Shown: positions 1-4,766 of the stretch, piece after piece
Layout of the letters: the number at the start of each line of letters is the position of its first letter
Position numbering within the stretch: position 1 is the stretch's first letter
IMG/VR virus record: IMGVR_UViG_2585427792_000006
Source: a virus
Lineage: Duplodnaviria > Heunggongvirae > Uroviricota > Caudoviricetes
Strand: one strand, 5' to 3'
Length of the DNA: 8,017 bases
Made by a program: the position numbers and the translations under genes
The notes under the pieces: model-generated
What the model was told of the DNA's origin: nothing
Databases searched by the model: none
Seen by the model: only the letters and a program-made list of their open reading frames with translations

Positions 1-1089
1 TCCCGTAAATCCTCCGGTTGCAAAATGGAATTTCGCCGCAGCGGCCTGAATGGCTGTACCGCCTGACGCGGATGCGCCGCCACCAACAGCCCCGCCAATG
101 GCGCTGCCGATACTCCCGACAATCCCCACCATTGCCTGCTTAAGCAGAATTTCTGTCATCATGGACAGCACGGAACGGGTGAAGCTGCGCCAGTTCTGTT
201 CGCTGCCGGTCAGCATCGCCGCCATATTCTGTGCAATACCGTCAAAGGTCTGCGTGGCCACACTTTTAACCTGCGAAAAACTGTCCGTCGCACTTTCCGC
301 CCACTCTCCCCAGCCGGACTTCATCCCGGCCATCCAGCTTCCACGAAGCTGCTCCTCCGCAGACCTGGTGTTCTTCAGTGCAGATGTGGCCTTCGCCAGC
401 GCAGCCGGATTATCACCGTACACCTCACGAAGGCGCTGCTCTTCCGACTCCCGCTGCGCCTGACGGTCGGTGAGGCCGCGGGCTTTTGCGCTGATTGCCG
501 CCTGCTTCGCGCTTTGCTGCTGTTCAAACCGCGCCGCCTGCTGTGCCAGCTCATTCAGCCGCTTCTGGTGTTCAATCTTGTCTCCCAGCTCAGCCAGCTG
601 GCGTTTGTACTCCAGCGTCTCTTTCTCATGAGCCAGCAGGGATTTTTCCTGCTCAGATAACTGCCGTTTCGTGGCGGCCTCTTTCAGGACCACATACTGA
701 TTTTCCGCTTTCCATAAATCACGGCGCTGCTGGCTGATTTTTTCATTCGCACCGCTGTGCTTCTCCAGCGTCCTGAGCTCAGTTTCAAGCGCCAGCAGGG
801 CTGCATGCGCCTGGTCTTCCTGGCGCTCACCGGCAGACACCTTCACACCGGACGGCTTTTTCTGCGTCGACTCATAATCCTTTTTTGCCGACGCCATCAG
901 CGTGTTGTAATCCGCCTGCAGGATTTTCCCGTCTTTCAGGGCCTTATTCAGCTCTTCCTGCCGGGCGGTATATTTCTCCAGTGGCGTCAGCAGGCGCTCA
1001 TACGCCTTCTGCGCCTCTCCGGTATACTTCAGCTGTGACGACTCACGCTCAGCCCTGTCCCTTGCCGCCTGTTCACCGGCTTTTTCCAT
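1..1089 (-). CDS. H: Tail tape measure protein, distal segment. Open reading frame from the A5 run to the window start with no stop inside the window; the 3' end of the gene lies beyond coordinate 1. It is in the +1 frame relative to the N-terminal segment (1073..2212). Start coordinate is the first in-frame ATG (1087..1089), which is not necessarily a used start.
   Basis: Manual reverse-complement translation of 1..1089 gives one continuous frame: ...AGEQAARDRAERESSQLKYTGEAQKAYERLLTPLEKYTARQEELNKALKDGKILQADYNTLMASAKKDYE...GANEKISQQRRDLWKAENQY...SWMAGMKSGWGEWAESATDSFSQVKSVATQTFDGIAQNMAAMLTGSEQNWRSFTRSVLSMMTEILLKQAMVGIVGSIGSAIGGAVGGGASASGGTAIQAAAAKFHFATGGFTG. This is colinear with the central part of lambda gpH as I recall it, including the glycine-rich hydrophobic segment. 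Confidence 0.85.
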   Translation of the reverse strand, partial: MEKAGEQAARDRAERESSQLKYTGEAQKAYERLLTPLEKYTARQEELNKALKDGKILQADYNTLMASAKKDYESTQKKPSGVKVSAGERQEDQAHAALLALETELRTLEKHSGANEKISQQRRDLWKAENQYVVLKEAATKRQLSEQEKSLLAHEKETLEYKRQLAELGDKIEHQKRLNELAQQAARFEQQQSAKQAAISAKARGLTDRQAQRESEEQRLREVYGDNPAALAKATSALKNTRSAEEQLRGSWMAGMKSGWGEWAESATDSFSQVKSVATQTFDGIAQNMAAMLTGSEQNWRSFTRSVLSMMTEILLKQAMVGIVGSIGSAIGGAVGGGASASGGTAIQAAAAKFHFATGGFTG

Positions 1090-2212
1090 CAGCCTTCTTT
1101 CGGGCGGCTTCAAGCGCAAGACGGGCCTTTTCACGATCATCCCAGTAACGCGCCCGCGCTTCATCGTTAACAAAATAATCATCCTTGCGCAGATTCCAGA
1201 TGTCGTCTGCTTTCTTAAACGCAGCCTCTGCCTTAATCAGCATCTCCTGCGCGGTATCAGGACGACCAATATCCAGCACCGCATCCCACATGGATTTGAA
1301 TGCCCGCCCAGTCCTATCCGCCCAGGTCTCCAGCGTGCCCATGTTCTCTTTCAGGCGGCGGGTCTGGTCATCAAACCCTTTCGTGGCGACATCGTTCGCC
1401 GCCTGCAAGGCCCCGGCCTCGTCTCCGGAACGCTGCAGTTGTGCAACATACGCAATCTGCTCTGCCGTCACGTTACGGAACTGGCGCGCCATCGCCATCA
1501 GTCCCGACGTCGGGTCAGTGGTCAGCTTCCCGAAGGCTTCAGCGACTTTATCCACCTCCACACCGGATGCAGACGCAAAACGCGCGACACTCTGGTTAAT
1601 GGCATCAAACTGTTCACCACCACGCACACCGGCATTCACCAGGGCTGCCAGTGACTCACTCGCCTGGTTAAACGTCAGCCCTGCTGCCTGCCCGGCTCTT
1701 GAGAGCGTCAGCATACGATCGGCAGTCAGTCCGGCCTGATTGCCGGAAAGGACCAGCGTTTTATTAAATTCTGAAAGCGTGGAATCTCCCTGGTACCAGG
1801 CGTACACCAGCGCACCTGTCGCCACCGCCAGCGAGGTGACCCCGACCATCGGCAGGGTGATCGCACCGGCAAGCCCCCTGAACATGGGGATCATCCCGCC
1901 GAAGGAGTCCTTCACCTGACCGCCCTGTTGCAGCAGGATCAGCCAGGGATTCTGACCACCGGCAAGCTGCGTGGCGATATCCGTAAACTGTGCGGGCAGG
2001 GTTCGCATGGCCGCTTTATACTGTCCGACGGAAATCCCTGCTTTTTGTGCAGCCAGCGCCTGGCGGCTCAGCCCCTGCTCAACAGCACTGGCGGTTTTTC
2101 TGGCGTCAGTATCCAGACCTGAAAAATGACGCCTTACCCGGCTCATCTGCTCATCGAAACGGACCGCATCCAGACTAAGGTCAATAACAAGATCACCAAC
2201 CGGCTGGGACAT
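1073..2212 (-). CDS. H: Tail tape measure protein, N-terminal segment (379 aa), ending at a TGA directly after an A5 homopolymer. It is probably the 5' part of one H gene interrupted by a frameshift.
   Basis: ORF-track protein MSQPVGDLVIDLSLDAVRFDEQMSRVRRHFSG...EARARYWDDREKARLALEAARKKADGKSR is colinear with the lambda gpH N-terminus. RBS GGGAGGTG lies about 7 nt upstream of the ATG at 2212. The start overlaps the end of the T frame by 20 nt. Confidence 0.9.
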   Translation of the reverse strand: MSQPVGDLVIDLSLDAVRFDEQMSRVRRHFSGLDTDARKTASAVEQGLSRQALAAQKAGISVGQYKAAMRTLPAQFTDIATQLAGGQNPWLILLQQGGQVKDSFGGMIPMFRGLAGAITLPMVGVTSLAVATGALVYAWYQGDSTLSEFNKTLVLSGNQAGLTADRMLTLSRAGQAAGLTFNQASESLAALVNAGVRGGEQFDAINQSVARFASASGVEVDKVAEAFGKLTTDPTSGLMAMARQFRNVTAEQIAYVAQLQRSGDEAGALQAANDVATKGFDDQTRRLKENMGTLETWADRTGRAFKSMWDAVLDIGRPDTAQEMLIKAEAAFKKADDIWNLRKDDYFVNDEARARYWDDREKARLALEAARKKADGKSR

Positions 2213-3064
2213 ATCTCACACCTCCCGGAATCCCCGCTGAAGCCATCATTAATGCGGCATCATCCACCATGACATCCGCCACATCCGCAGACGATAAAAT
2301 ATCGCCCCCTCCGTCCCCACCGAACCGGACGCCTCCGGCAAGTCCTGCCGCTTTCTGCATCAGCATTTTGTCCTCATCCGGCCTCTCCACCTGCTCTTCC
2401 TCATGCCGGGGGACAAGCAGACTGAAATCAGAGGGATGCATATCCGGATCGCAAAAAAACAGGCTGAGTACAGCGTACGTCAGCCCGGAAAAATGCATAT
2501 CCAGCTGGGTATCCTGAAAATAATGCGTGCGGTAAAAACGGTGCCAGTCGGCATATTCGGTGGATGTCATCCCGGCAAGCATGGCGCGCCAGTCGGGTCT
2601 CCCCATCTCACGCGCCAGTCTGAGGGCAAAGTTCAGCTCACCGTCGAAGACTTTCCCGCAGAAAAATCATCATCAGTCAGCGTGTTATTTTTCGCCACTT
2701 CAGTAATATCAGTATCCGGACGAACAGCTTCGATCATCCCGGACAGGCACAACACCACGTCTTCCGCCCGGGCAATGGCATCAGCAGGCCAGGTGGTGAG
2801 CACTTCCTGCTCTATCTTCATCACGGCCTCATTCATTGACGGTGACTGCGTTTTCTGTGGATGGTTATGCCACAGGGACATCGCCACCAGAAACGCGCCG
2901 GTTCTGACAAGATCTTCCACACTCACCTGCAGGTTGCCGCTGGCTTCAGCCTCTTCTGCCCGCCGTTTCAGGAGGGCAAGATGCTCAATACGCTGCAGCG
3001 CAGACAGCTCAGAAAGCGTGACGGATACACCGTTATATTCAAATTGTTCTGTTTTCAGAAACAT
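2193..3064 (-). CDS. T: G-T tail assembly chaperone fusion, made by a programmed -1 ribosomal frameshift at 2651..2657. The G frame runs 3064 to 2654, then the -1 frame continues to the stop at 2193.
   Basis: The -1 frame downstream of the heptamer reads GKVFDGELNFALRLAREMGRPDWRAMLAGMTSTEYADWHRFYRTHYFQDTQLDMHFSGLTYAVLSLFFCDPDMHP..., matching lambda gpT. The T frame has no convincing independent start or RBS, and this arrangement is conserved across long-tailed phages. Confidence 0.85.
2633..3064 (-). CDS. G: Tail assembly chaperone G (143 aa)
   Basis: Protein MFLKTEQFEYNGVSVTLSELSALQRIEHLALLKRRAEEAEA...SMNEAVMKIEQEVLTTWP...DDDFSAGKSSTVS is a near-colinear match to lambda gpG. RBS GGAGG precedes the ATG at 3064. 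The slippery heptamer sits 5 codons before the stop. Confidence 0.93.
   Translation of the reverse strand: MFLKTEQFEYNGVSVTLSELSALQRIEHLALLKRRAEEAEASGNLQVSVEDLVRTGAFLVAMSLWHNHPQKTQSPSMNEAVMKIEQEVLTTWPADAIARAEDVVLCLSGMIEAVRPDTDITEVAKNNTLTDDDFSAGKSSTVS
2651..2657 (-). promoter_or_regulatory. Programmed -1 frameshift slippery heptamer G GGA AAG (G to G-T recoding site)
   Basis: Minus-strand sequence ...GAT TTT TCT GCG GGA AAG TCT TCG ACG GTG AGC TGA: the heptamer G_GGA_AAG is in the G frame 5 codons before the G stop, identical to the lambda G/T slip site as I recall it. Confidence 0.85.
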
Positions 3065-3077
3065 GTATTACCTCCGT

Positions 3078-3827
3078 TTAGCCACCCGGCACATTATTAA
3101 CGGTAATTTCAGCCACCGCAGCGAACTGACCATTTCCGCTCACCACAGGGATCTGCACCTTACCTGTCGCCACGCCGTTTACCGTAATTGTCATATCTTT
3201 CACACTAATGGTGGCTTTCGACGGATCGGCGGAAACCGCTCTGAACGTCTTGTCCGTTGCATTTTCCGGTTCCACAGTAACGGTCAGGGTGGTTGTTTTC
3301 CCTTTTGCCACCGTACCGGATGTCGGCGTCACCTTAATCGCACTGACCGGCGTAATTTTGCTGCGTTCTTCCGCTACAGAAGGTTTACCCACGTTAGTGA
3401 CTTTCACCGTGCGGGTGATCACTTCTTTCGCCGTCACGGCCTTACCGATACTGCTGACCCAGCCACGAAACACATCCACCGTGCCATTCGGAAAACGGAT
3501 TTTATAGGCCCGGACATCGCCGCTTTCAAACCAGCCTATAAGCCCTTTCTGACCTTCCTCTCCCGGTTTCCAGGCCAGCGTAAAACTGGTATCACCTGCA
3601 GATTTCTGCCCCTGCCCGGTCGCGGTCCAGTCCGCGTCTTCATCATCCAGGTAGTTATCATCGTAGGATTCTGCCGTCATCTCGCCCGGCGTCAGATCCT
3701 TCACCTTAGCCAGTCGCTGCCAGTCAGCGTCTGACAACGGGTTTGCATAAGCATCACCCTTGCCGTTGTAAACCCACAGAGTGGTACCGGCACCTTTTAC
3801 CGGCTCCAGGGGATTTGGTGTTGCCAT
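3078..3827 (-). CDS. V: Major tail tube protein V (249 aa) with a C-terminal Ig-like (Big_2-type) domain
   Basis: Protein [50 protein letters not shown]... matches lambda gpV. The C-terminal segment ...[66 protein letters not shown]... has the alternating beta pattern of a Big_2 domain. RBS GAGGA overlaps the U stop. Confidence 0.95.
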
Positions 3828-3834
3828 ATCGTCC

Positions 3835-4230
3835 TCACATCTCGTATGTAATGGAATAAGTCAGATCCGCAGAGCTCCATAACGCCATATCGTCATCACG
3901 ACGATACTCATAGCCCTGCGTAACCATCGTGGTAATCAGTCCAGCCAGTGCCGGGATCGCAGTCATCGCCGGATAAATCCGGCTTTCCATCCACTGATCA
4001 AGCTCTGAATCCGGTACCTGTGCCGGTAAAAACACCTCAATATGCAGTGTGGCCCGCCAGGTATCTGCATCCAGCTCTTCACCGGTATACTCTGCATCCG
4101 TCAGATAAACCGCGATCGCAGGAAAATCCTCTTCGTCAAAAACAACGGGGCGACCATCAAACAGCGTCGCCCCGTGTTCATGCTGCTCGAGTGCATCCAG
4201 CACTGCAGCACGGATATCAGTGTGTTTCAT
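3835..4230 (-). CDS. U: Tail terminator protein U (131 aa)
   Basis: Protein [131 protein letters not shown] matches lambda gpU in length and sequence. Its start overlaps the Z stop (ATGA). Confidence 0.95.
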
Positions 4231-4766
4231 CGTTTTATCGCAATCCTCAGTTGTTGTTTCAGCGCGGATGCCAGTTCTCCGGGCAGGCGTTCACGCCGGA
4301 TACGGTCAACATTCTCATCAAATGCCTGTTTCAGTGGGGCCGCCATCGGGATTTTCACCACCTCAATAGGGTAACGCTTTTTCCCGGCCACAGGAAGACG
4401 TTGCATAACATGCCAGCGACCATTATTTAATCGCTGAATAAATGCCCGCTGATAACGATGCTGACCGGCTTTGAGTATGCTGTCCGGACGACGCCCCAGC
4501 ATCCTGATCCCCAGCTTAATCACAGGGAGATCACCGCGGTTAACGATAATTCTGGCATTCGGATTTCTGACCGTGGCCCGTTTCAGTCTGGACCGTTCCT
4601 TAACCAGTTTCCGGCGTACCTTTGTCTCCCGGGCAACCTGTGATGAAGACTGATTAATCGCCGTTGTGGCCACGCGGTTAATCGTCATTGCTGAAGCCGC
4701 CGGAATGGCGTTTTTACGAACCCGGCTCAGATTATCAATCGCCTGATCAAGCCCTTTTATCGCCAT
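4227..4766 (-). CDS. Z: Tail completion protein Z (179 aa)
   Basis: Protein MAIKGLDQAIDNLSRVRKNAIPAASAMTINRVATTAINQSSSQVARETKVRRKLVKERSRLKRATVRNPNARIIVNRGDLPVIKLG...NGRWHVMQRLPVAGKKRYPIEVVKIPMAAPLKQAFDENVDRIRRERLP... matches lambda gpZ. RBS AGGGGGAA is upstream of the ATG at 4766. Confidence 0.95.
   Translation of the reverse strand: MAIKGLDQAIDNLSRVRKNAIPAASAMTINRVATTAINQSSSQVARETKVRRKLVKERSRLKRATVRNPNARIIVNRGDLPVIKLGIRMLGRRPDSILKAGQHRYQRAFIQRLNNGRWHVMQRLPVAGKKRYPIEVVKIPMAAPLKQAFDENVDRIRRERLPGELASALKQQLRIAIKR

Follow-up and report, generated by a model that had tools for sequence, protein, structure and literature searches.

What has split the tape-measure gene H of this lambdoid prophage, and where does its reading frame change? 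The window, which is the whole 8,017-nt stretch analysed here, is identical to the entire contig JOSH01000083.1 of assembly GCA_000713615.1, from Escherichia coli 1-392-07_S4_C3, an isolate from the faeces of a Tanzanian child that was sequenced by means of an Illumina HiSeq 2000 with 100-bp reads and assembled with MaSuRCA 2.3.2 (PMC6222053). Every gene of the window is on the minus strand, and together they make up a lambda head-tail module (Table 1). The best matches, at 97-98% identity, come from E. coli lambdoid prophages; induced lambdoid phages match at 94-95%. The median number of places that carry the region in an E. coli genome is 2. The ten genes other than H are intact and have counterparts in functional phages. 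Both contig ends (positions 1 and 8017) fall in conserved stretches, one inside H, where the sequence reads ...GGATTTACGGGA, and one inside C, which suggests that the assembly broke at sequence common to another lambdoid prophage of the same genome.

Several features identify the split gene as that of a lambda-family gpH. It lies directly after G and T in the order Z-U-V-G-T-H, in the window as in annotated relatives; it carries TMP_2 N-terminally and Tape_meas_lam_C C-terminally, one domain on each ORF; and its product, once repaired, is 92-95% identical to proteins of 851-857 aa annotated as tape-measure. What it lacks is the single ORF of ~850 codons: a stop at 1075..1073 interrupts the gene, and the rest is in the +1 frame. 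As assembled, H is a pseudogene, and the GenBank record already splits it into two CDSs. Its 5' ORF consists of 374 native codons followed by an out-of-frame G-K-S-R and TGA, ending ...LEAARKKADGKSR, and precomputed matches assign Pfam TMP_2 (PF06791) to the 379-aa product. The 3' part is a called gene with Pfam Tape_meas_lam_C (PF09718), and ~115 C-terminal codons fall outside the contig. An initial annotation, made from the window by itself, had ended the N-terminal frame at TGA 1073..1075, in agreement with both ORF and translation, and had continued H in the +1 frame to the window start; that frame is indeed without a stop from 1236 to position 1, reading ...MEKAGEQAARDRAERESSQLKYTGEAQKAYERL..., the third frame being closed. 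Over 161 nt neither H frame contains a stop, so the sequence cannot by itself place the shift, and relatives are needed.

Table 1. Features of the window that bear on the split of H, with the strings compared at the joint.
Feature	Coordinates	Strand	Description
Module gene order		minus	C/Nu3 (partial), D, E, FI, FII, Z, U, V, G, T, H (partial)
Z	4227-4766	minus	179 aa; variable patch at ~4372-4390
V	3078-3827	minus	249 aa; divergent C-terminal (Big_2) end at ~3090-3300
G/GT -1 heptamer G GGA AAG	2651..2657	minus	in phase, near the 3' end of G (3064..2633)
H 5' part	1073..2212	minus	ORF and translation; 379 aa; annotated as KEN81169.1
H 3' part	1..1089	minus, +1 frame	363 codons from ATG 1089..1087 (MEKAGEQ...) to contig end
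Zone open in both H frames	1076..1236	minus	161 nt; any single shift inside gives the same two ORFs
L-type block	~1390..1090	minus	...GRPDTAQEMLIKAEAAFKKADDIWNLRKDDYFVNDEARARYWDDREKARLALEAARKKA; set in an otherwise S-type H
Joint GAT	1088..1090	minus	lambda-type identity ends ...AAGGCTGA (1089); S-type starts ATGGAAAAAGCC (1089)
A5 run	1081..1085	minus	native S-type codons GAA AAA
Private SNP	1070	minus	CAG (Gln) vs CTG (Leu) in S-type; 19 nt downstream of joint
L-type string			...WDDREKARLALEAARKKAEQQ[T/S]QQDKNAQQQSDTEASRLKYT
S-type string			...WDDRENARLGLAAATLQSDMEKAGELAARDRAERESSQLKYT
Joint string as assembled			GCTGATGGAAAAAGCC
L-type continuation past joint			GCTGAGCAGCAG
S-type sequence upstream of joint			TCGGATATGGAAAAAGCC
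String expected of an intact hybrid allele			GCTGATATGGAAAAAGCC

Prophages of E. coli carry two allele classes across this region of H, a lambda-like L-type and an S-type, which are equal in length and have little DNA similarity across the block. Both are common: of the best 120 matches to the protein as repaired, the joint region is L-type in 82 and S-type in 38. H of the window combines the two. The left boundary of its L-type block lies in well-conserved sequence; across the bins from 1278 to 1100, ~200 nt, the block has 0 mismatches to the 851-aa alleles of loci L007 and L010, as against 41-56 mismatches per 100 columns to the S-type allele of L001. Identity to L007 and L010 runs to ...AAGAAGGCTGA. 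From ATGGAAAAAGCC (1089) to position 1 the gene is instead identical to the S-type with a single SNP, at 1070, and compared with the intact H of SCU-125 it shows 0-1 mismatch per 100 nt.

The joint itself reads GCTGA/TGGAAAAAGCC, where S-type genes have GAT ATG GAA. At 1089/1090 the L and S segments adjoin, sharing no more than 1 nt and standing 2 nt out of register, and the window has 401 nt where 80 of the 80 relatives listed, whether L- or S-type, phage or prophage, have 403. Inserting AT (GAT[AT]GG) gives ...ARKKADMEKAGEQAARD..., read as KKADMEKAGEQ, within a single ORF of at least 738 codons to the contig end, and H so repaired has the same length as both allele classes. Each flank of the joint therefore matches a separate attested allele, with 0 mismatches on the left and 1 on the right, and the switch is made within 1-2 nt. 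To judge from these alignments, the lesion in H consists in 2 nt missing from a chimeric joint, 1089/1090, which lies 4 nt upstream of the A5 run.

Apart from this joint, H is in good order. Against 132 relatives the repaired protein has two private residues only, V275 and Q382, and no second lesion. V275 (GTC codon, ~1388-1390) and Q382 (the CAG codon with the SNP at 1070) each adjoin a boundary of the block and represent an L-type base in S-type context, a pattern that points weakly to patchy exchange or a mixed consensus. We rejected long-term prophage decay, given the single lesion, the paucity of private residues and the intact neighbours; the decaying prophage of the initial annotation finds no echo in a second H lesion or in any of the ten other genes.

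No second instance of the joint was found in any of the collections searched. With a 101-nt probe over it, none of 5,426 complete E. coli genomes shows a match of 80% coverage or more; the matches stop at 1089. Phage records likewise lack the joint and any in-frame version. So does IMG/VR, where both were sought as CGAAAGAAGGCTG-N(0-30)-GCCGGTGAAC, and the same pattern, run on one genome per species and on JGI metagenomes, retrieved chance matches in an Oscillibacter gene only. The pattern GCCCGAAAGAAGGCTGATNNGGAAAAAGC gave nothing in IMG/VR viral contigs. The CAG variant at 1070 is absent from the 5,426 complete E. coli genomes and from IMG/VR, where the positive control, the ordinary S-type string, yielded at least 120 matches. 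At the protein level, a 140-aa repaired junction peptide retrieved only proteins of up to 239 aa, and the joint is in none of them; the best 120 matches to the 738-aa repaired protein include no hybrid; and KKADG, KKADME and GEQAARD occur in none of the proteins retrieved. The exact 379-aa product is found on this contig only, among ~15 billion proteins, a collection searched through cluster representatives, so that an in-frame hybrid could hide inside a large cluster.

We prefer, at what we judge to be an evenly balanced probability, to read the split as a real and very recent inactivating lesion at a private chimera of two common allele types. The lambda-type block (~1390..1089) would have entered an S-type H, with its right-hand joint placed in a non-homologous stretch and 2 nt short. 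This could have come about through one imprecise exchange between lambdoid phages or prophages aligned through flanking homology, or through an in-frame hybrid that subsequently lost one AT from ATAT. The register error would leave the remaining 60% of H, downstream of the joint, in the +1 frame, and translation would be expected to end after 379 aa, keeping the TMP_2 region and losing the rest with Tape_meas_lam_C. From what is known of lambda, tail tubes without a continuous tape measure would be neither initiated nor measured, and induction would probably yield heads without functional tails, unless another prophage supplied H.

Of the two routes, the single step, an out-of-register non-homologous exchange between aligned lambdoid H alleles that left a 'failed' mosaic junction before selection could act, is conceivable but on the unlikely side. 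If it did occur, the joint would be the kind of non-functional intermediate that is predicted by the model of phage mosaicism in which illegitimate recombination is followed by selection. Broken tape-measure genes are no rarity, which also speaks for a real lesion. Among 83 S-type loci of IMG/VR with the open frame fully inside the locus (L012 onward), H is interrupted elsewhere in 8, which puts the base rate in prophage and viral contig collections at very roughly 10%.

The strongest competitor is an artefact of assembly, to which we assign a substantial though less than even probability. Here the genome would hold two lambdoid prophages, with H of the L-block kind in the first and of S-type in the second, and the MaSuRCA/Celera consensus or a merging of contigs would have switched alleles in the divergent block with a 2-nt glitch; neither of the real H genes would in that case be broken. 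The setting is one in which such things happen: a short contig, of which the window is the whole 8,017 bp, bounded by repeats and ending inside genes C and H, in a MaSuRCA 2.3.2 draft made from 100-bp reads, over the kind of region, with a median of 2 places in each genome, from which chimeric contigs come. A joint so near to register (2 nt) is what an alignment-based consensus or a merge error is expected to leave, while random illegitimate recombination would hardly land there unless the partners were aligned by flanking homology. The uniqueness of the joint in all public data searched also points this way, as do V275 and Q382, with their L-type bases in S-type context at the block boundaries. 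That nothing else in the module has decayed is compatible with an artefact, and fits a very recent event equally.

Two properties of the joint count for a real event. Each side follows one allele cleanly (0 and 1 mismatches), with no scatter of mixed bases such as a mixed consensus would give; and the L- and S-types share no k-mer there, so that a path through the assembly graph could not have crossed the joint without reads that bear it. A further point for the artefact, that Z and V of this contig have no exact match elsewhere, is weakened by both being ordinary allelic variants with close relatives. We had considered a scrambled contig on account of the short Z and the unique V and rejected it, as both variants are in frame. 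The exact sequence of Z is confined to this contig; its length elsewhere is 191 aa (L001, L007) or 177 aa (L009, L010), in-frame variation and not damage. V has one codon fewer than in L001 and L007, and other V proteins of 249 aa exist, although the exact sequence is limited to this contig.

That the shift lies in the A5 run itself, as the initial annotation proposed, is highly improbable, the comparison with relatives largely refuting it. An ancestor with A4 (string GCTGATGGAAAAGCC) would have gained one extra A at 1081..1085, by mutation or by miscall. The coordinates given for the run and for the ATG at 1087..1089 are right, and removing one A does fuse the two frames, giving ...KKADGKAGEQ... 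and a single ORF. Relatives, however, put the shift at 1089/1090 and show the A5 run to be native. The proposed check, whether close relatives have A4, came out the other way: intact relatives have A5, in ATG GAA AAA GCC (M-E-K-A), where an expanded run would have left them one base shorter. In the intact 857-aa S-type H of SCU-125 the run stands in frame in TCG GAT ATG GAA AAA GCC GGT GAA; the exact S-type string with A5 is present on at least 120 IMG/VR contigs, and 75 of 83 testable S-type loci of IMG/VR read through it in a frame that stays open beyond 800 codons. From ATG 1089 on, the window is identical to the S-type except for the SNP at 1070.

An A4 ancestor would in addition call for a 3-nt register error together with an A that was lost and later regained, and its product would be one codon shorter than both allele classes. 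Illumina rarely miscalls A5, and the reads were from a HiSeq, which makes a homopolymer miscall, another of the explanations first offered, unlikely. On the other side, homopolymer indels do occur in error-prone records, and phage 204576 (CP025907) has A4 at this very run. In that unannotated record (L004), the stretch at ~7597-8034 carries A4 and several other 1-base gaps within ~500 nt; these look like uncorrected indel errors, and so like a model of a true homopolymer error at the A5 site. A run that is in frame in intact relatives carries a general caution: a frameshift beside a homopolymer should not be blamed on the run before relatives have been checked.

On comparative grounds we rejected, as exceedingly improbable, any retention of function through a programmed +1 frameshift on GGA AAA AGC, transcriptional slippage, or a two-piece H made by restart at ATG 1089..1087, since recoding or a two-piece H predicts a conserved two-frame layout and relatives lack it. 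The layout is confined to one contig, while the best 120 relatives, all tape-measure proteins, read the joint region in one frame. Re-pairing of tRNA-Lys is conceivable after a +1 slip on A AAA A, but inspection finds neither a rare codon nor a stop immediately after the run, AGC following it and the stop coming two codons on; and A5 is too short for known transcriptional slippage. The restart ATG, 14 nt upstream of the stop, has before it a weak SD-like AAGG that is poorly spaced, at only 3 nt, as noted at the outset. Restart would moreover give a separate C-terminal piece and not a ruler; the lambda gpH tape measure acts as one continuous chain. Recoding had also been ranked least likely in the initial annotation, and the alternatives it named as real, an inactivating lesion or an artefact of assembly or sequencing, are those that still stand.

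Comparison with known systems places the locus as follows. (i) With lambda gpH (853 aa) the split gene shares its identity and its place after G and T, in a region of 90% DNA identity, as well as the TMP_2 and Tape_meas_lam_C domains and a block of lambda type (1390..1089); it differs in that its other parts belong to the 857-aa S-type allele, common among prophages of E. coli, and in that the frame is broken at the joint. (ii) The mosaic 851-aa H alleles (P0092/L007 and P0095/L010) carry the same lambda-type block in an S-type background, but their right boundary is in frame and falls within conserved sequence (LKYT..EAQKAYERL), ~60-100 nt farther downstream, whereas that of the window is non-homologous and out of frame. 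(iii) Lambdoid tail genes split by frameshifts are known from stf of the laboratory lambda PaPa and from defective lambdoid prophages such as those of E. coli O157 Sakai. As in these, a small indel in H has made two adjacent ORFs within an otherwise intact structural module; unlike them, the indel here sits precisely at a novel allele joint and not within otherwise uniform sequence. (iv) A genuine recoding site, the programmed -1 frameshift of lambda G/GT, is present in the same tail module of the window. The G/GT site is conserved in relatives; the split of H, which would call for +1 (or -2), occurs on this contig alone, and no conserved signal accompanies it.

The split of H is accordingly of a kind already known, either a dead prophage gene of the ordinary sort or a mistake of assembly, and its significance is mostly limited to annotation. 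If the lesion is real, the prophage cannot build functional tails alone, and H should be annotated as a pseudogene with a 2-nt deficit at 1089/1090; an indel at a novel, non-homologous allele joint would, if supported by reads, also be a small illustration of the non-functional products of mosaic recombination. If it is an artefact, the contig is an example of a chimeric contig in a draft genome with several prophages.

Two further observations were made along the way. In the window, the 0 frame of G ends ...SAGKSSTVS*, while the -1 frame entered at the heptamer reads GKVFDGELNFALRLAREMGRPDW... straight into T. Among the relatives, a partial H of 875 aa on a 4.2-kb E. coli contig (P0091) contains an in-frame tandem duplication of ~137 aa (TADRMLTLSR...TLETWADR, present twice), which could be an assembly artefact and, if real, would predict a longer tail.
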